DNA of 64,000 nt from Acutalibacteraceae bacterium (GTDB taxonomy: Bacteria; Bacillota; Clostridia; Oscillospirales; Acutalibacteraceae): positions 6,614-70,613 of the forward strand of contig JAZSQU010000017.1 of assembly GCA_045538095.1 (NCBI GenBank), written 5' to 3'. How positions within the stretch are numbered: the stretch's first letter is position 1; each line of letters begins with the position of its first letter. The notes under the pieces are model-generated. The model was not told where the DNA came from. It saw nothing but the letters and a program-made list of their open reading frames with translations, and searched no databases. The position numbers and the translations under genes were made by a program. This document shows, one piece after another, positions 44,518 to 57,602 of the stretch.

Positions 44518-44631
44518 GTCTTTTACCTCCTTATGGTCTCTGGCCCTGCATCCTCGTGCAGAGCAAGGAATTTTTGTTGCAGACACACTGCAACAGTTAA
44601 AGATTATAACAGTATTTGCCACTGTTGTCAA
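44518..44631 (-). promoter_or_regulatory. Consensus promoter plus structured rpsF 5' leader
   Basis: Minus strand reads TTGACA (44626-44631), 17 nt, TATAAT (44603-44608). The leader has hairpins gttgcag/ctgcaac and ctgca/tgcag. Confidence 0.7.
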
Positions 44632-47487: not shown

Positions 47488-49011
47488 ATGGCTAAAGAAA
47501 AAAAGCAAAAGGAAGCTCCCGTAAACGAGCACCCTAATAAAATAGGCGTCAAGGATGCTGCAGGTTATACTATTGCCGAAGCTGCGAATATGTTTAACCT
47601 TACGTACATTTCAAGCTACCTTAAAATGTTCATGACCGACGTTCTCGGCATTGCTCCTGCAAAAGCCGGCGTTATGTTTATGATTACCCGTATCTGGGAC
47701 TGCATCAACGACCCCTTGTGGGGTGCGCTGGTTGCAAAAAGAGCACCCTCAAAGAACGGAAAGTTCCGTCCTTACCTCAAGTGGGTTGCCTTTCCTCTCG
47801 GAATTTCAACAATTCTCTGTTTCCTTCCCTATCATCAGTTTACTCAGAGTCAGGGACTCCTTCTCGGTATATGCTACATCACCTACTGCCTTTACGGCAT
47901 GATGTACACAGGTATGAACATACCCTTCGGCTCACTTGCTTCAGTTATTACCGATGACCCCAACGGCAGAAACCTTCTTTCAACCTTCCGTTCAATCGGT
48001 TCAGGTATCGGCGGCGCCGTGGTTTCACTTCTCGCTCCCTTGTTTATTTACTCAGTTAAGATGGAAAACGGAGCAGAAGTTATTGACCCAATCACAAACG
48101 AAGTAATTAAGCAGACCGACGGCAACAAAATGTTCATTTTCGGTCTTGTTATGGGTATTCTTTCAATTATCTTCTACCTTGTAGGCTTCAAGACTACAAA
48201 GGAAAGAGTTCCCTCAGAAGCAGACCCCAAGGTTGACCTTAAGAAAACCTACCTGGGACTTCTCAAGTCAAGACCCTTTGTTACTGTTGCACTTGCAGGT
48301 GTACTTATTTCAGGTCAGCTTCAGTTCAACTCATTCAATACATACCTTTATAAGAACTACTTTACAAATACAGACCTCGGTATTCTCGGCACAATCTGTA
48401 ACTATCTTCCCATGGTCTGCCTTGTTCTCTTCACTCCGAAGCTTTCAGCAAAATTCGGCAAAAAAGAGCTTTGCGGCAAGTTCTCAATCATTGCAGCTAT
48501 TACTTCAGTTGTACTTGCAATTCTCGCAAACAATCAAAGCTTTATCGATATGATAAATCCCGACAAGGGCATTTTCCCTGCGTGGATGTTCATGACTTCG
48601 CTTCTTCTTATCGGTTTCGGTTATACCTTTGTAAGCCTTACCTGCTGGGCAGTTGTAATGGACGTTATTGACTATCAGGAATACACCACCGGCATCAGAA
48701 GTGAAAGCGCAGTTTATGCCGTTTACACCTTCTCAAGAAAGCTCGGTCAGACAATCGCTGACACAGCAGGTCTTTTCCTTCTTCAGTGGGCTAAATATGA
48801 CAGCACAACAGCCGGCAACGGTTTCATTACAGAAAACGGTACAAGTAAGAAAATTATGCTTATCTGCACAATCATACCTGCCGTTGTTTACACCGGCGTA
48901 TGGCTTCTTATGAGATTCGGTTATCCTCTCACCAAGGAAAGACTTGAACCCATTTATGCTTTTGTAAGAGAGAAGAGAGAGGCTGCTGAAGCCGAGGCTA
49001 AAGAGGCATAA
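47488..49011 (+). CDS. GPH-family glycoside-pentoside-hexuronide:cation symporter (intact)
   Basis: 507 aa, about 12 TM segments. RIWDCINDPLWGALV motif. Confidence 0.8.
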   Translation: MAKEKKQKEAPVNEHPNKIGVKDAAGYTIAEAANMFNLTYISSYLKMFMTDVLGIAPAKAGVMFMITRIWDCINDPLWGALVAKRAPSKNGKFRPYLKWVAFPLGISTILCFLPYHQFTQSQGLLLGICYITYCLYGMMYTGMNIPFGSLASVITDDPNGRNLLSTFRSIGSGIGGAVVSLLAPLFIYSVKMENGAEVIDPITNEVIKQTDGNKMFIFGLVMGILSIIFYLVGFKTTKERVPSEADPKVDLKKTYLGLLKSRPFVTVALAGVLISGQLQFNSFNTYLYKNYFTNTDLGILGTICNYLPMVCLVLFTPKLSAKFGKKELCGKFSIIAAITSVVLAILANNQSFIDMINPDKGIFPAWMFMTSLLLIGFGYTFVSLTCWAVVMDVIDYQEYTTGIRSESAVYAVYTFSRKLGQTIADTAGLFLLQWAKYDSTTAGNGFITENGTSKKIMLICTIIPAVVYTGVWLLMRFGYPLTKERLEPIYAFVREKREAAEAEAKEA

Positions 49012-49019
49012 GTTTGAAC

Positions 49020-49048
49020 TTGACAAAATAAAAAACTCCGTGTATAAT
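49020..49048 (+). promoter_or_regulatory. Perfect consensus sigma-A promoter with no ORF downstream
   Basis: TTGACA (49020-49025), 17 nt, TATAAT (49043-49048). Confidence 0.65.
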
Positions 49049-49062
49049 GGAAATACACGGAG
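49030..49062 (-). terminator. Minus-strand terminator for the small toxin-like gene
   Basis: Arms ctccgtgta (49036-49044) and tacacggag (49054-49062), with a T-run on the minus strand (plus-strand A-run 49030-49035). Confidence 0.6.
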
Positions 49063-49151
49063 AGGTTCTCTGCAATAAGCAGGTAACTCCCAGATATTGA
49101 TGTTAAAGATGAACACCGCGATTTGGAAGATGGGCGGTGTTCTTCTTATTT
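49055..49151 (+). ncRNA. Candidate ~95-nt antisense sRNA (type I antitoxin candidate)
   Basis: Runs from the consensus promoter to a terminator: gaacaccgc (49111-49119) with gcggtgttc (49134-49142), then ttcttattt. No ORF. It lies wholly inside the predicted 3' UTR of the convergent small toxin-like gene. Confidence 0.5.
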
Positions 49152-49180
49152 ATGTATTAAATCTCATACTAAATATGAAG

Positions 49181-49285
49181 TCATTTGTTACGTTTTCCTT
49201 TTCGGATATCCTTAAGTACTTTGTAACAGAATGAGATAATAGCAAGTATCAGATTAATGATTGCACATTTTTCTGATATTGTCAT
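49181..49285 (-). CDS. 34-aa hydrophobic/basic peptide, type I toxin-like (Fst/holin-like-toxin architecture)
   Basis: GGGGGTG RBS 5 nt upstream of the ATG. MTISEKCAIINLILAIISFCYKVLKDIRKGKRNK: one hydrophobic helix plus a Lys/Arg tail. Confidence 0.55.
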   Translation of the reverse strand: MTISEKCAIINLILAIISFCYKVLKDIRKGKRNK

Positions 49286-49354
49286 ACTATCACCCCCTTC
49301 TTCAAAATGAAAAGGGAGTTACCGCCTACTGTTTTATGCAGATTACCTGCGGTA

Positions 49355-49383
49355 ATTTTGTCATAGCGGCATAAAAAAGTCAA
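49355..49383 (-). promoter_or_regulatory. Possible promoter of the toxin-like gene
   Basis: Minus strand reads TTGACT (49378-49383), 17 nt, CAAAAT (49355-49360). In the leader, ACUCCCUU (plus 49312-49319) can pair with the SD AAGGGGGU (plus 49291-49299). Confidence 0.4.
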
Positions 49384-49482
49384 CTGCAACCACAGGTTGC
49401 GTAAATTCCAAGTAAAGTTTATTGCTTTTTCTCTCATTGTAAAGTACAATAAAACCAGCAAATCAAAGAAAGGCTGATAATT

Positions 49483-50199
49483 ATGAAGCTACACGATAAG
49501 ATATATGAACTCAGAAAAAAGGAAGGTCTTTCTCAGGAAGCTCTTGCTGAAAAGTTAGGAGTTTCAAGGCAGTCTGTCAGCAAGTGGGAAACAGGCGAAG
49601 CTACACCTGAGGTCACTAAGCTTGTGGCTATCAGCAAACTTTTCGGTGTTACAACAGATTATCTTCTGAATGATGAGACTGAAGAAGAAAAGGAGATTGA
49701 AACTCCGATTTTTGAAATGCCCTCATCCGCTTTTGAAGCGACTTCCGTAAACGAAACAACTTCGCCGAAAAAGAAAAATAAATCTGTAAAAGGACTTGTA
49801 ATTGCACTTTTAATCTGCATTATGCTGTGCATTCTCACGCCCCTTATAGTTGCTATTTTAGGTTTCAGTATATTTCAGATGAGTCCCGACGCAGAGACAA
49901 TATACGCCGAAACTGCACCCGGCTATGAAATTGAAGTTATGCCGAGCATTCCCGTAAGCGTTGAACCTGATGAAACCTATCCCTACGACGCAGACGATAC
50001 TGTCAGCGTCAGCTATCCCGACGAAAGCAGCGGAGAAGTCATTATACATTTTGAACAAAGCTCTTCAAGCGAGCCTCAATCAAGCTCTGCTTTCAGTGTT
50101 GCAGGTGTTCTTGCACTTGTTTTCGGTTTGCCTGCGTTGGCAATTCCGATTCTGATTATAGCACTCATAATACTTCTTATAAAACGAAAAAGGCAATAA
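49483..50199 (+). CDS. XRE-family HTH regulator with C-terminal membrane anchors
   Basis: 238 aa. [26 protein letters not shown], then two hydrophobic segments. Confidence 0.8.
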
Positions 50200-54578: not shown

Positions 54579-54600
54579 TTTTCATTTAGTTGAATTTTGA

Positions 54601-54726
54601 TTATTCAGCGTCAGCGCCAAATTCGTCAACCTTGCCCATGATCTTTTCTACAAGAGCAAAGATAGCGTCAACAACCTTTTCGATGTTTTCGATGAATGTC
54701 ATTACATCTGCAAAGAAGTTTTCCAT
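54601..54726 (-). CDS. Small peptide P4 (41 aa)
   Basis: AGGAGG RBS 9 nt upstream. MENFFADVMTFIENIEKVVDAIFALVEKIMGKVDEFGADAE. Confidence 0.65.
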   Translation of the reverse strand: MENFFADVMTFIENIEKVVDAIFALVEKIMGKVDEFGADAE

Positions 54727-54775
54727 TACTTTACGCCTCCTATTTTTGTGATTTACCTTTTAAAGGTTCAGCTTA

Positions 54776-54804
54776 ATTATATACTAAGGCTTTAATAAAA
54801 TCAA
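54776..54804 (-). promoter_or_regulatory. P4 promoter
   Basis: TTGATT, 17 nt, TATAAT on the minus strand. Confidence 0.6.
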
Positions 54805-54824
54805 GAGTTTTCTTAAAATTTTTT

Positions 54825-54858
54825 AAAAAATTAAGAACTGCCGGTAAGCAGCTCTTAA
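54825..54858 (-). terminator. Terminator of P5
   Basis: Arms ttaagaactgc and gcagctcttaa (one mismatch), plus U6 on the minus strand. Confidence 0.65.
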
Positions 54859-54866
54859 ATAATTTC

Positions 54867-54959
54867 TTATTTGAAATAAGTGTTGATCCAATCCATAAGA
54901 CTGTTATACATAAGGGTAACAATTGCGATAAGTTCAGCGATAAGATCTGTAAGTACCAT
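54867..54959 (-). CDS. Small peptide P5 (30 aa)
   Basis: AAGGAG RBS 8 nt upstream. MVLTDLIAELIAIVTLMYNSLMDWINTYFK. Confidence 0.65.
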   Translation of the reverse strand: MVLTDLIAELIAIVTLMYNSLMDWINTYFK

Positions 54960-55012
54960 TTCAGTTTCTCCTTTTCTCTAAATTTTGTTGTTCAAGTATG
55001 AACGTTGGCATA

Positions 55013-55041
55013 ATTATACACCAAGGATTTTAAAATTTCAA
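55013..55041 (-). promoter_or_regulatory. P5 promoter
   Basis: TTGAAA, 17 nt, TATAAT on the minus strand. Confidence 0.6.
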
Positions 55042-55147
55042 GGGAAAGAAAAAATTTTTAATTATTATATGAAAAAAATTGTAACTGTATTAACTCAGGA
55101 AACGGCATTCTATTGTCTGATGCTGTGTAGTTGCTTTCAGCTGTAAG

Positions 55148-55182
55148 CAAAAACGGTACCACCCGTCAGGACAGTACCGTTT
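55148..55182 (-). terminator. Terminator of the P8-P7-P6 unit
   Basis: Arms aaacggtac and gtaccgttt with a 14-nt loop, plus a U-run on the minus strand. Confidence 0.6.
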
Positions 55183-55286
55183 TATGAAAATTATTGAATT
55201 TCTTTTTATCAACTTCAATTATGTAACCGATTCTGAGAAATTTTAGAATTTCATTGATGATACCGACTACAATCACAAAAATCCAT
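55166..55286 (-). pseudogene. P6: frameshifted or degenerate paralog of P7
   Basis: ATG 55286 gives only 11 codons. Shifting one base in the T5 run (55277-55281) reads MDF-VIVVGIINEILKFLRIGYIIEVDKKKFN..., which aligns with P7. No good SD. Confidence 0.5.
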
Positions 55287-55316
55287 TATACGTTTTTCCT
55301 GTAAAGTAAAACTTAA

Positions 55317-55424
55317 TTAAACAACGTCCTGCTCTACAAACTTGAGCTCGTAATCGATTCCAAGCATTTTTAAAACTTCGTTGATAAGACCTACAACGAA
55401 AGCGATAACATCATTCATATCCAT
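55317..55424 (-). CDS. Small peptide P7 (35 aa)
   Basis: GAGGAG RBS 8 nt upstream. MDMNDVIAFVVGLINEVLKMLGIDYELKFVEQDVV. Confidence 0.65.
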   Translation of the reverse strand: MDMNDVIAFVVGLINEVLKMLGIDYELKFVEQDVV

Positions 55425-55460
55425 TGTTATTTCTCCTCTTGATACTGAACTTTTTAAGAC

Positions 55461-55541
55461 TTACATTAAGCCTTCTTTTTTCATAATAGCTTCGATAATA
55501 TCAAAAATTCTTCCGGTAATAAAAGTTAAAAATCCCCACAT
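55461..55541 (-). CDS. Small peptide P8 (26 aa; 29 aa if started at ATG 55550)
   Basis: AAGGAG ends 9 nt before ATG 55541. MWGFLTFITGRIFDIIEAIMKKEGLM. Confidence 0.55.
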   Translation of the reverse strand: MWGFLTFITGRIFDIIEAIMKKEGLM

Positions 55542-55594
55542 ATTTGTCATCTCCTTTATTTTTTTGTTATCGGATTCATCACCGATACAATTTT

Positions 55595-55623
55595 ATTTTA
55601 CACTACAATTAACAATAAATCAA
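55595..55623 (-). promoter_or_regulatory. P8 promoter
   Basis: TTGATT, 17 nt, TAAAAT. Leader hairpin tatcgg/ccgata. Confidence 0.55.
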
Positions 55624-55650
55624 GTGGGTTAACTGTTTTTTAAAACTAAT

Positions 55651-55681
55651 AAAACAAAACCGCAAACCTTACGGTTTGCGG
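55651..55681 (-). terminator. Terminator of P9
   Basis: Arms ccgcaaacc and ggtttgcgg with loop ttac, plus a U-run on the minus strand. A second perfect hairpin aagttattt/aaataactt lies at 55684-55705. Confidence 0.8.
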
Positions 55682-55712
55682 TATAAGTTATTTGCAAATA
55701 ACTTAACTGAAA

Positions 55713-55856
55713 TTAGCCAACATAATCGAGACCTTCGTCTTTAGCAACGATGTTGAAGATTTCAGCAAGAATAACTGTGAGAAGATCAATGAAAGCAGCT
55801 GCCTTGTCTTCTGCATTAATAAGTGCTTCAATCTTGCCCTTAATACGATCAAACAT
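55713..55856 (-). CDS. Small peptide P9 (47 aa)
   Basis: AAGGAGG RBS 8 nt upstream. MFDRIKGKIEALINAEDKAAAFIDLLTVILAEIFNIVAKDEGLDYVG. Confidence 0.65.
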   Translation of the reverse strand: MFDRIKGKIEALINAEDKAAAFIDLLTVILAEIFNIVAKDEGLDYVG

Positions 55857-55876
55857 TATAGTATCCTCCTTATTAG

Positions 55877-55905
55877 ATTTTAGTAATGTAAATTTGACAA
55901 TTCAA
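55877..55905 (-). promoter_or_regulatory. Possible internal promoter for P9
   Basis: TTGAAT, 17 nt, TAAAAT within the 55-nt P10-P9 spacer. Confidence 0.4.
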
Positions 55906-55911
55906 ACAAAC

Positions 55912-56046
55912 TTATTTGATGAGGTTTGCGAACTCATCTTCGATTTCTGTGCCTACTTCCTTTTCGAAAATAGCCTTAACAAAAGCGATGATTTCGTCGA
56001 TAAGGTTGTAGATAGCGCTCTTTACAGCAGCTGTAAGATTATCCAT
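55912..56046 (-). CDS. Small peptide P10 (44 aa)
   Basis: GGAAGGAGG RBS 9 nt upstream. MDNLTAAVKSAIYNLIDEIIAFVKAIFEKEVGTEIEDEFANLIK. Confidence 0.65.
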   Translation of the reverse strand: MDNLTAAVKSAIYNLIDEIIAFVKAIFEKEVGTEIEDEFANLIK

Positions 56047-56128
56047 TGTGTAAGTCCTCCTTCCTCAATATTTGTTTATGGGATAAACCCAATAACATAC
56101 TAAAAAATAAAAGTGTCACTAGACAATC

Positions 56129-56269
56129 TTATTTAATGATGCCTACAACATCATCATAAGCGTCCTTAAGTTCGTCTTCTACTTCTGTGCCAACTTCTTT
56201 GTCCCAGATTGCTCTGATGAAAGCGATGATGTCAGCAAAGAGCTTTTCGAAAAATGCCTTAATATCCAT
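56129..56269 (-). CDS. Small peptide P11 (46 aa)
   Basis: AAGGAGG RBS 9 nt upstream. MDIKAFFEKLFADIIAFIRAIWDKEVGTEVEDELKDAYDDVVGIIK. Confidence 0.7.
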   Translation of the reverse strand: MDIKAFFEKLFADIIAFIRAIWDKEVGTEVEDELKDAYDDVVGIIK

Positions 56270-56326
56270 TGTACAAGTCCTCCTTTATAAATTTGCGTGA
56301 GGTACACACTCCTCTAACATAGATAC

Positions 56327-56355
56327 ATTATATAATAAGCAAAATTGTTTGTCAA
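56327..56355 (-). promoter_or_regulatory. P11 promoter (perfect consensus)
   Basis: TTGACA (56350-56355), 17 nt, TATAAT (56327-56332). Leader hairpin gagg/cctc. Confidence 0.7.
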
Positions 56356-56420
56356 TAGTTAATTCAAAAAAAGTTCATCAATTAACACGATTTCTTTATA
56401 AATTTTAATAAATTCATATT

Positions 56421-56454
56421 AAAGAAAAATAACGCACAGTTTTCTGTGCGTTAT
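56421..56454 (-). terminator. Terminator of P12
   Basis: 11-bp stem ataacgcacag/ctgtgcgttat with loop tttt, plus a U-run on the minus strand. Confidence 0.85.
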
Positions 56455-56552
56455 CACTTTGTTTCAATTGTGTCTCTTCTTAGCCGATAACGGGTACAAA
56501 GTAGACAAAGAAGAAACCGGGTATGCTGGCCTAAAAACTCAATAAGATAACC

Positions 56553-56693
56553 TTATTTTGTGCTGTCAAGAATGTTATCGTATGCATCCTTGAGTTCGTC
56601 TTCTACTTCTGAGCCAACTTCTCTATCCCAGATTGCTCTGATGAAAGCGATGATGTCAGCAAAGAGCTTTTCGAAAAATGCCTTAATATCCAT
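56553..56693 (-). CDS. Small peptide P12 (46 aa), close paralog of P11
   Basis: GGGAGG RBS 8 nt upstream. MDIKAFFEKLFADIIAFIRAIWDREVGSEVEDELKDAYDNILDSTK. Its first 23 aa are identical to P11. Confidence 0.7.
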   Translation of the reverse strand: MDIKAFFEKLFADIIAFIRAIWDREVGSEVEDELKDAYDNILDSTK

Positions 56694-56747
56694 TGTATAA
56701 TCCTCCCTTTAAAATTTATCTGAGGAAAAACCCTCTTGCGACTTCCG

Positions 56748-56776
56748 ATTATATATCAGAAATACATTTCTGTCAA
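56748..56776 (-). promoter_or_regulatory. P12 promoter (perfect consensus)
   Basis: TTGACA (56771-56776), 17 nt, TATAAT (56748-56753). Confidence 0.7.
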
Positions 56777-56842
56777 TAGTTTATTCAGAACAGCCCGATA
56801 AATAGCACTTTTTTAATAAAACTTAATAAATCTGAAATAAAC

Positions 56843-56874
56843 AAAAAAATAACACACAGCGAACTGTGCGTTAT
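56843..56874 (-). terminator. Terminator of the P14-P13 unit
   Basis: Arms ataacacacag and ctgtgcgttat (one G-U pair), plus U7. Homologous to the P12 terminator. Confidence 0.8.
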
Positions 56875-56888
56875 CAGGTTGAATTAAA

Positions 56889-56984
56889 TTATGCCTCTTC
56901 CTCTTCGTCAAGACCAATGAGGGGTCTGAGGTAAGCAAACATAAAGTCGAGTAGTCTGTTGATGATGTCGATAAGTTTCTGCAT
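56889..56984 (-). CDS. Small peptide P13 (31 aa)
   Basis: GGAGG RBS 9 nt upstream. MQKLIDIINRLLDFMFAYLRPLIGLDEEEEA. Starts 18 nt after the P14 stop. Confidence 0.65.
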   Translation of the reverse strand: MQKLIDIINRLLDFMFAYLRPLIGLDEEEEA

Positions 56985-57002
56985 AATAAATTACCTCCGT
57001 TA

Positions 57003-57110
57003 TTAGTTAACTTCGTTCTTGAGTTCATTGATGAATTTTTCAAGAATTTCATCAATGAAAGCGATAATTCTCATAAAAATAGCTTCGAACTGAGCCTTGA
57101 AATCTTCCAT
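57003..57110 (-). CDS. Small peptide P14 (35 aa)
   Basis: AAGGAG RBS 8 nt upstream. MEDFKAQFEAIFMRIIAFIDEILEKFINELKNEVN. Confidence 0.65.
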   Translation of the reverse strand: MEDFKAQFEAIFMRIIAFIDEILEKFINELKNEVN

Positions 57111-57154
57111 TGTGTTTTCTCCTTTCTGTATTTTATACAAAACTCTATAATGCT

Positions 57155-57182
57155 ATTATACACAAAATTAAAATAAAATCAA
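57155..57182 (-). promoter_or_regulatory. P14 promoter
   Basis: TTGATT, 16 nt, TATAAT on the minus strand. Confidence 0.55.
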
Positions 57183-57202
57183 TAGTTTTAAATTTATTTA
57201 AT

Positions 57203-57234
57203 AAAAAAAGTGCCACAAGCAAAAGCTTGTGGCA
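57203..57234 (-). terminator. Terminator of the P16-P15 unit
   Basis: Arms tgccacaagc and gcttgtggca with loop aaaa, plus U7 on the minus strand. Confidence 0.85.
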
Positions 57235-57247
57235 AAATTCAATTAAC

Positions 57248-57370
57248 TTATGCTTCGATACCGAGCTGCTTGTAAATGAATGCGAAGAGTTCCTTGAGGC
57301 CTTCTACGAAAGCGTCAACAAAAGCCTGGAAGTTGCCTTCTTTAATGTTGTTGATGATATTTGTAATCAT
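57248..57370 (-). CDS. Small peptide P15 (40 aa)
   Basis: AAGGAGG RBS 8 nt upstream. MITNIINNIKEGNFQAFVDAFVEGLKELFAFIYKQLGIEA. Confidence 0.65.
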   Translation of the reverse strand: MITNIINNIKEGNFQAFVDAFVEGLKELFAFIYKQLGIEA

Positions 57371-57412
57371 TGCGTTTTCCTCCTTGTTAGAATTAAATTT
57401 TAAAAAATCAAA

Positions 57413-57523
57413 TTAGAAGTTGAGATTAGCTTCGATCATGTTCTTAAGATATTCAGCAAGTGTGTCGAAGAACTTAAGAATTTCTGCCCAAAGATTGTCA
57501 AAGTTAAGGCTGATGTTTTCCAT
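57413..57523 (-). CDS. Small peptide P16 (36 aa)
   Basis: AAGGAGG RBS 8 nt upstream. MENISLNFDNLWAEILKFFDTLAEYLKNMIEANLNF. Confidence 0.65.
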   Translation of the reverse strand: MENISLNFDNLWAEILKFFDTLAEYLKNMIEANLNF

Positions 57524-57573
57524 TACGATATCCTCCTTTTTATATTTTAGGGACATCCCCCTAAGTTGATTAC

Positions 57574-57602
57574 ATTATATATCAGTATAAATGATTTGTC
57601 AA
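57574..57602 (-). promoter_or_regulatory. P16 promoter (perfect consensus)
   Basis: TTGACA (57597-57602), 17 nt, TATAAT (57574-57579). Leader hairpin ttaggg/ccctaa. Confidence 0.7.

Follow-up and report, generated by a model that had tools for sequence, protein, structure and literature searches.

The window analysed here is a 64,000-nucleotide stretch of contig JAZSQU010000017.1, from an uncultured Acutalibacteraceae bacterium (Oscillospirales) of the ruminant gut, and its segment 49012–49384, a 373-bp insert between a transporter gene and a regulator gene, probably constitutes an accessory type I toxin-antitoxin module whose family is absent from current databases. This candidate was recognised from sequence, with its accessory distribution, the coding pattern of a 34-amino-acid (aa) open reading frame (ORF), the predicted lock on the messenger RNA (mRNA), conserved promoters, expression in gut metatranscriptomes, and a design like that of Hol_Tox genes all pointing to this reading. 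To our knowledge, type I toxin genes hardly ever receive an annotation, and next to none are known from the uncultured Oscillospirales that dominate ruminant and human hindguts. New type I families turn up regularly and the locus is no surprise in kind; as a candidate it has clear boundaries, natural presence/absence variants, unusually strong constraint at the nucleotide level, and high expression in vivo.

The module lies between an MFS_2 sugar-type transporter gene (47488–49011, plus strand) and an HTH_3/XRE gene (49483–50199, plus strand), whose product has a membrane-anchored C-terminus and which is followed by mfd on the minus strand. It stands in place of a plain transporter-gene terminator of ~60 bp, and is present in some relatives and absent from others. 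Two sets of loci were compared, the first comprising 80 loci with an orthologous transporter, from metagenome-assembled genomes of cattle, sheep, goat, deer, and yak hindgut, and the second gathered by a search with the XRE protein and look-ups of XRE relatives; DNA sequencing runs containing the region came from bovine, sheep, and other gut metagenomes. Among the 80 transporter-orthologue loci the segment occurs only in L002 and L003, with the XRE-based search adding L091/L092, L093, L099/L100, and a partial copy in L102. In the nearest relatives without the module (L001, L004, and L005), the transporter stop codon is followed by a simple terminator, a conserved palindrome, and the XRE promoter, with the remaining non-carriers (L094, L096–L098, L101, and L104–L107) likewise showing a stop codon, a simple terminator, and the putative XRE operator instead. 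Comparison of L099, which carries the module, with L104, which does not, reveals 94% identity on the XRE side, where the first ~100 nt are identical, and only 79% on the transporter side, indicating that presence of the module differs between very close relatives and that the alleles are mosaic. Both forms are found within one metagenome, and on metagenome contigs the module is single-copy and in the same context every time.

Such an insertion/deletion polymorphism, together with internal inverted repeats (49064–49091 and 49314–49347), is also what a decaying miniature mobile element with no cellular function might leave, an explanation that we regard as scarcely probable at all. The repeats are internal and not terminal, and contain G·U pairs that work only in minus-strand RNA, whilst the segment always occupies the same site as a single copy, is under strong purifying selection, and is highly expressed. 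Neither the window nor the 80 orthologous loci hold a second copy of the module, its repeat arms, or its promoter-hairpin, and a multi-copy mobile element was rejected on this ground. Furthermore, tblastn and blastn searches of phage, plasmid, and viral collections gave no match to the module.

The putative toxin gene of the proposed module is the minus-strand ORF 49181–49285 (read from 49285 to 49181), encoding MTISEKCAIINLILAIISFCYKVLKDIRKGKRNK, and the 34-aa peptide with one helix and a Lys/Arg tail described in the original prediction is present there. The peptide has a single predicted transmembrane helix, a hydropathy of up to 2.2 over a 17-residue window, the tail KDIRKGKRNK, and a net charge of +6; as a hydrophobic peptide of fewer than 60 aa in which a predicted transmembrane helix is followed by a charged C-terminus, it has the characters by which type I toxins are classed. 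Three nt before the AUG lies the Shine-Dalgarno (SD) sequence AAGGGGGUGAU (49299–49289, minus strand), which is invariant in all alleles and identical at 10 of 11 positions to the extended Firmicute consensus AAGGAGGUGAU. Both the length and the frame of the ORF are constant in all seven complete alleles. Over the additional alleles 10 nucleotides of the ORF vary, with synonymous changes at K31 (AAA to AAG), I9 (ATC to ATT), E5 (GAA to GAG), and L14 (CTT to TTA, for which two changes are needed), and with replacements (I10V/F, I13V, T2S, and R32H) that are all conservative. The most diverged pair, the window and L099, gives a dN/dS of 0.16 (sd = 5, nd = 3), and a pooled Fisher test of synonymous against non-synonymous changes gives p = 0.036, the numbers being small but all in one direction.

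The ORF and its 5′ untranslated region (UTR), 167 nt in all, are identical in the window, L002, and L003, compared with DNA identities of 89% for the transporter coding sequence and 74–75% for the XRE coding sequence, a flank divergence which places these three loci in different species. In L003 and L091, sequence identity ends at the base after the stop codon. When ~700 kb were scanned for short ORFs that follow an SD and encode a hydrophobic stretch and a basic tail, with thresholds chosen after the peptide had been seen, the scan returned this peptide, internal starts within the XRE gene, and one other ORF. Together, these sequence patterns suggest that the ORF behaves as a protein-coding gene, and an exact-sequence look-up found it uncalled by gene callers in any assembly on record.

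The promoter predicted for the toxin mRNA (49383–49355, minus strand) comprises a −35 element TTGACT (49383–49378), a 17-nt spacer, and a TGn-extended −10 element CAAAAT (49360–49355), with the start at ~49347. The −35 element is invariant and the spacer varies at 6 of 14 positions among alleles; the −10 element reads CAAAAT in the window and TAAAAT in most alleles, the exception being the L091/L092 allele, in which its last position is changed from T to C and the element is weakened. From this start a full-length mRNA of ~322 nt (49026–49347, minus strand) is predicted to run to hairpin 1 and its U6 tract (49026–49062; stem 49062–49053/49045–49036, −14.7 kcal/mol), and the minus-strand terminator proposed earlier at 49030–49062 is thus borne out as a stem over 49062–49036 followed by U6. 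The stem and loop of hairpin 1 contain the −10 element of the opposing promoter, with the stems invariant and the loop varying at 3 of 7 positions. The mRNA (49347–49026) has a minimum free energy (MFE) of −105.3 kcal/mol (z = −9.4, with 0 of 100 shuffles as good), compared with −97.4 kcal/mol (z = −6.6) for the plus strand over the same span.

This fold is dominated by a long-distance helix of −37.2 kcal/mol that encloses the ORF, in which the 5′ arm (49347–49314), including the anti-SD sequence, pairs with the 3′ arm (49091–49064) through a duplex containing two G·U pairs that become A·C on the other strand. The only variable position of the 5′ arm is in L102. In L099, a change of TC to AA at 49067–49068 makes the 3′ arm perfectly complementary to the first ten mRNA nucleotides, GGUAAUCUGC, which supports the predicted mRNA start. 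The anti-SD sequence itself, ACUCCCUU (49319–49312, minus strand; RNA core ACUCCC), is invariant in all alleles. In the full fold the SD and the start codon are paired with codons 14–18, and in the fold lacking the 3′ arm the anti-SD and SD form a local hairpin of −13.8 kcal/mol, so that the SD is occluded in both predicted states; this accords with the earlier proposal that an upstream element could sequester the SD. The consensus fold is kept in six alleles. On these predictions the toxin mRNA would be translationally locked, and it has the descriptors given in T1TAdb, all of them predicted: 150–400 nt, structured, with a sequestered SD, and with a terminator stem-loop and/or a 5′–3′ interaction (PMC8594479).

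Conservation outside the ORF follows these elements. In the non-coding sequence, 10 of 141 positions are variable in the elements with a predicted function (promoter hexamers, stems, SD, anti-SD, and arms), compared with 53 of 133 in the loops, spacers, linkers, and 3′ UTR (p = 6e-11, a value that overstates independence, the variable positions being partly one replaced block).

On the plus strand, the perfect TTGACA-17-TATAAT promoter named in the original prediction is found at 49020–49048 with 12 of 12 hexamer positions matching, and is the predicted promoter of the antisense RNA; both hexamers are invariant in all alleles, with one spacer position and the loop of the adjacent hairpin varying. 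Promoters with at most one mismatch to this consensus number 15 in the window against 0.53 expected, a ~30-fold enrichment, and the four other perfect ones all precede an SD and an ORF, one lying before an rpsF-like operon and three before small peptide genes; in this genome a 12 of 12 match is accordingly a strong predictor. The plus-strand terminator put forward at 49111–49151 is likewise present, as hairpin 3 (GAACACCGC / GCGGUGUUC; 49111–49142, −17.2 kcal/mol) and a T-rich tail, with a compensatory replacement of G-C by A-U preserving the stem, and the T-tail likewise kept, in an allele that is only 55% identical in the surrounding sequence. Since the original terminator is gone with the insert, hairpin 3 is needed as a transporter terminator and probably ends the transporter transcript as well. 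The alternative raised at the outset, that the plus-strand hairpin serves as a terminator only, is therefore upheld in part, as regards the transporter gene, whilst an antisense RNA is still compatible with that role.

Promoter and terminator together predict an ORF-less antisense RNA of ~97 nt (49055–49151, plus strand), which in its whole length is complementary to the 3′ UTR of the toxin mRNA, including the 3′ arm, and which folds at −31.4 kcal/mol (z = −2.9). Such an RNA would be expected, from the modelled pairing, to compete with the 5′ arm for the 3′ arm. The plus strand also bears a weak promoter-like site, TTGTCA-18-CAAAAT (49279–49308), and a weak hairpin with a T-run (49337–49351). 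From these, a ~45-nt RNA complementary to the 5′ end of the toxin mRNA might arise, an alternative antitoxin resembling Sok or IsoA, and conservation is uninformative on this point, the region 49279–49360 being almost invariant.

Assembled, strandless contigs from seven gut metatranscriptomes show RNA from the locus. Contigs over the module are present in all seven, and six have a contig that does not extend beyond it: X25 (49091–49331, depth 64.6), X31 (49088–49236, depth 37.5, compared with 5.2 for the contig continuing from the transporter gene), X28 (49089–49296, depth 5.2), X29 (49070–49319, depth 4.5), X26 (49097–49328, depth 3.5), and X27 (49075–49308, depth 3.5). In the seventh the sole contig, X30 (48900–49210, depth 7.36), continues from the transporter gene. 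The module-confined contigs have outer limits of 49070–49331, with right ends including several at 49319–49331, and reach depths up to 7-fold or more above those of the flanks. Apart from read-through, no contigs of at least 99% identity cover the flanking genes, where only transporter relatives of 90–95% identity were found, at depths of ~1–4. The module is thus strongly expressed in vivo as a unit of its own. Long half-lives have been reported for type I toxin mRNAs of Clostridia, and the high RNA level of the module fits such stable transcripts (PMC6563280).

A sharp left end or a 7-fold step in coverage occurs at 49088–49091, the outer edge of the 3′ arm, in three metatranscriptomes from two studies, and in one metatranscriptome a Tn5 adapter is joined at 49088. 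This end could be a processing site, produced for example by duplex cleavage, or a library artefact.

The abundant transcript of ~250 nt might alternatively be a structured non-coding RNA in which the 34-codon ORF is incidental, as the very strong fold z-score, the conservation at the nucleotide level, and the lack of a protein homologue would allow. We consider this very improbable, with the near-ideal SD and its spacing, the invariant ORF length in seven complete alleles, the synonymous excess including the double Leu change, and the confinement of replacements to conservative ones all speaking for translation; the conserved block moreover stops at the stop codon, a peptide of this type is rare by chance, and no Rfam family is matched.

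A further possibility accepts the toxin-like gene as real and takes the plus-strand elements not to be an independent antitoxin, with control exerted instead by self-folding of the mRNA, by read-through from the transporter gene, or by a 5′-UTR antisense RNA. The module must in any case provide a terminator, given that module-less relatives have one at its site, and RNA contigs from the transporter gene pass hairpin 1 and reach at least 49102 and 49210, so that read-through also supplies the antisense sequence; the strandless contigs include no separate short RNA, and the weak promoter and terminator pair described above lies over the 5′ UTR. Against this, the 12 hexamer positions are invariant while the neighbouring loop and spacer vary, every other perfect promoter in the window looks functional, a family of 31-aa loci described below keeps a convergent perfect promoter despite a divergent spacer, and RNAs below ~100 nt are lost from standard libraries. 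We accordingly view the absence of an independent antitoxin as quite improbable.

Under the preferred reading, that of a type I module with its own antisense RNA, the minus-strand promoter at 49383–49355 would direct a ~320-nt mRNA for the 34-aa single-helix membrane peptide with its basic tail. This mRNA would be locked by pairing of its 5′ end (49347–49314, including the anti-SD) with the 3′ arm (49091–49064), with the SD sequestered by the coding region, or, if the 3′ arm is missing or already engaged, by the anti-SD. The convergent promoter at 49020–49048 would produce the ~97-nt RNA ending at the hairpin at 49111–49151 and complementary to the 3′ UTR and 3′ arm, and transporter read-through transcripts would carry the same antisense sequence. 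The resulting duplex might then be subject to RNase III-type decay, as in bsrG/SR4 and txpA/RatA, and the 5′ arm that it displaces would free the anti-SD to clamp the SD. Were the antisense RNA lost, the peptide would damage the membrane.

The layout of this mRNA is not confined to the module. A leader pattern, ACTCCCTT-N9-15-AAGGGGGTGAT-N2-5-ATG, was searched for in metagenome contigs over ~10^12 positions, for which 1–2 chance matches were estimated, and ten metagenome loci were found. Three of the ten encode 26-aa MTVFE...QKK peptides matching Hol_Tox (PF16935; best E = 1.3e-9), and five (L083 and L087–L090) encode a 31-aa hydrophobic peptide, MGNNRGAKALRFVVCFVTGLAVAMAFAPKAC, for which no family name was found. 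Both groups fold in the order seen in the module, with a 5′–3′ helix around the ORF and an anti-SD/SD hairpin, followed by a post-stop hairpin that is the terminator of the convergent RNA and lastly by the terminator of the mRNA itself. For the 31-aa module of L083 (~293–700), a 5′–3′ locked mRNA is predicted, with an MFE of ~−140 kcal/mol for 307 nt, and within the 31-aa group the convergent perfect TTGACA-17-TATAAT is kept despite many differences in its spacer from allele to allele.

The 31-aa loci, as modelled, constitute a second candidate type I module, which shares with the first a promoter, a 5′ arm, ACUCCCUU, AAGGGGGUGAU, a tiny hydrophobic ORF, a post-stop hairpin, a 3′ arm, and a convergent perfect promoter, but differs in its unrelated peptide and in the GC-rich nature of its loci. 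Nucleotide similarity between the two is insignificant outside the imposed motif, and the 31-aa family is regarded as an analogue rather than a demonstrated homologue. This suggests that one RNA layout, comprising a 5′–3′ lock, an ACUCCCUU/AAGGGGGUGAU clamp, and a convergent consensus promoter, recurs with unrelated peptides; if so, it offers a structure-based route to more such genes, and is the most useful by-product of the analysis.

A broader proposal, which we hold to be possible though on balance doubtful, is that the module and the 31-aa loci belong to a wider and as yet undescribed class of type I design in gut Clostridia, where the antitoxin RNA would mimic the 5′ arm of the mRNA by a perfect match and, by taking the 3′ arm, flip the mRNA from the long-distance lock to the anti-SD clamp, exposing a duplex for cleavage. 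The ~250-nt RNA would then be a processed product, and homologous recombination in the flanking sequence would carry the module from species to species. If this is true, the ACUCCCUU...AAGGGGGUGAU leader combined with a convergent consensus promoter would provide a practical means of finding unannotated toxins in metagenomes of Firmicutes.

Amongst characterised systems, the closest likeness is to bsrG/SR4 and the related Hol_Tox toxins of B. subtilis (PF16935; BsrG, BsrE, and BsrH), which share with the module a small single-helix peptide with a basic C-terminus, a convergent antisense RNA over the 3′ end of the toxin mRNA with a terminator just past the toxin stop codon, and a stem around the SD that responds to events at the 3′ end, both of these latter being predictions in the case of the module. 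Binding of SR4 at the 3′ end promotes decay and extends the sequestration of the SD (PMC3834814). The Hol_Tox loci L084 and L085 additionally share the ACUCCCUU...AAGGGGGUGAU leader and the 5′–3′ helix layout. Unlike bsrG/SR4, however, the module encodes a peptide that is not a Hol_Tox member, its predicted ~97-nt antisense RNA stops short of the ORF, and it lies outside a prophage, in an uncultured Acutalibacteraceae. By analogy, the module is predicted to work like the bsrG/SR4 type whilst not belonging to that family by sequence.

The txpA/RatA pair of the B. subtilis skin element also shows a convergent 3′ overlap, with a model of RNase III-dependent decay (PMC6563280, PMC3531473). It has no sequence relation to the module, no Rfam antitoxin family being matched, and whereas the overlap of txpA takes in the end of the ORF (PMC8594479), the overlap predicted for the module is confined to the 3′ UTR. 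The Gram-negative hok/Sok and aapA1/IsoA1 systems resemble the module in the long-distance 5′–3′ lock and the SD/anti-SD pairing of the toxin mRNA (PMC8594479, PMC6733600). They too have no sequence relation to it, and their mRNA is activated by 3′ trimming and paired with the antisense RNA close to the 5′ region or the ORF start, whereas the predicted antisense RNA of the module would cover the 3′ arm.

Within the Clostridia, the Clostridioides difficile modules (CD2517.1-RCd8, CD2907.1-RCd9, CD0956.2-RCd10, and others) consist, as predicted for the module, of convergent overlapping genes, and their toxins resemble the peptide in having a hydrophobic N-terminal part and a Lys-rich charged tail, and in their stable mRNA; these toxins have no similarity to those of other genera (PMC6563280, PMC5961336). 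They differ in being mostly 47–53 aa long and often located beside prophages or clustered regularly interspaced short palindromic repeat (CRISPR) arrays. The search of 1.84 billion representative proteins gave no relevant match to the module peptide.

These likenesses bear on the rival that we take most seriously, and still consider unlikely, namely that the peptide is a harmless small membrane protein, such as one that modulates the MFS transporter or the membrane-anchored XRE protein, and whose expression is tuned by the fold and an antisense RNA without forming a toxin-antitoxin pair. The ORF does lie between a transporter gene and the gene of a membrane-bound regulator, no toxin family matches the peptide, and toxic and benign small membrane proteins are inseparable by sequence alone. 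Nevertheless, the patchy distribution among very close relatives with the same neighbouring genes, the heavily locked mRNA with its doubly sequestered SD (as predicted), the perfect consensus of the opposing promoter, and an RNA layout equal to that of Hol_Tox toxin genes are typical of addiction-type modules, and speak against an accessory transporter subunit.

Several observations weigh against interpretation of the locus as a type I module. The coding signal comes from just ten variable nucleotides, and the identity of the ORF and 5′ UTR in three species could stem from recent recombinational spread of mosaic alleles instead of constraint. The original prediction had proposed searching the peptide against type I toxin families and the antisense RNA in Rfam, and neither search matched a family: the peptide has no match in Pfam (E ≤ 1) or in NCBIfam and PADLOC (E ≤ 10), phmmer against the 1.84 billion representatives returned no homologue and one irrelevant match to a repetitive 1744-aa protein, and Rfam at gathering thresholds over the whole window gave no match on either strand. 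The hairpin at 49111–49151 doubles as a needed terminator of the transporter gene. Pairing of the antisense RNA in trans with the SD region was considered and dropped, 7% of shuffles pairing as well. Among the strandless contigs of the seven metatranscriptomes no separate ~97-nt species is visible, and the abundant contigs end at 49070–49097, missing the predicted mRNA terminator by 35–70 nt and lying 15–40 nt inside the predicted antisense start, between it and hairpin 3; neither predicted RNA accounts for these ends.

Additional searches concern the relation of the module to named families. A permissive Rfam search over 48800–49600 gave best scores of 22.6 bits for rliA and 21.6 for ctRNA_pT181, far below the cut-offs; Rfam contains 13 type I antitoxin families (PMC8594479). 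Comparison of the peptide with Hol_Tox yielded no Pfam match, nothing by BLASTP, and an hhalign probability of 6.7% against the Hol_Tox peptides found here, with only the N-terminal MT[IV]xE being Hol_Tox-like. A degenerate back-translated pattern for KCAIINLILAII gave no match in JGI/ENA metagenome contigs or IMG/VR, the JGI alleles being missed because they carry I10V and I13V.

The neighbouring XRE gene, the adjacency of which was noted in the original prediction, occurs in relatives with and without the module; it is therefore a neighbour and not a component, and its adjacency is incidental. A palindrome, GCAACC-N3-GGTTGC (49386–49400), precedes the toxin −35 element by 2 nt and the XRE promoter by ~60 nt. 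Relatives keep it irrespective of the module, and it is thus probably the operator of the XRE protein itself, which may, given the position of the palindrome, also act on the toxin promoter. In a more distant relative (L095, 482–1945), tandem XRE-type genes of 212 aa and 235 aa lie upstream of mfd with no gap of 373-bp size beside them, indicating that the neighbourhood itself is variable.

Short contigs in one metagenome resemble 49019–49056 in other contexts, where they look like ordinary promoters before genes. The perfect promoter at 44603–44631 (minus strand), which served as a control for promoter prediction, lies ~60 nt upstream of an SD and the ATG (44516) of an ORF with two more, of 146 aa and 80 aa, behind it; judging from the N-terminus and the sizes, these may be an rpsF-ssb-rpsR operon. 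Three further perfect TTGACA-17-TATAAT promoters (56327–56355, 56748–56776, and 57574–57602) precede ORFs of a tandem array on the minus strand at 54600–57560, which comprises ~9 small ORFs (35–47 aa) for related amphipathic helical peptides with acidic tails, for example MDIKAFFEKLFADIIAFIRAIWDKEVGTEVEDELKDAYDDVVGIIK at 56129–56269, with a near-identical copy at 56553–56693. From their sequences these look like a leaderless secreted or membrane-active family, perhaps resembling bacteriocins or phenol-soluble modulins (PSMs). The array adjoins a long plus-strand ORF (58474–59805, 443 aa), which may, judging from its sequence, encode a phage terminase large subunit.

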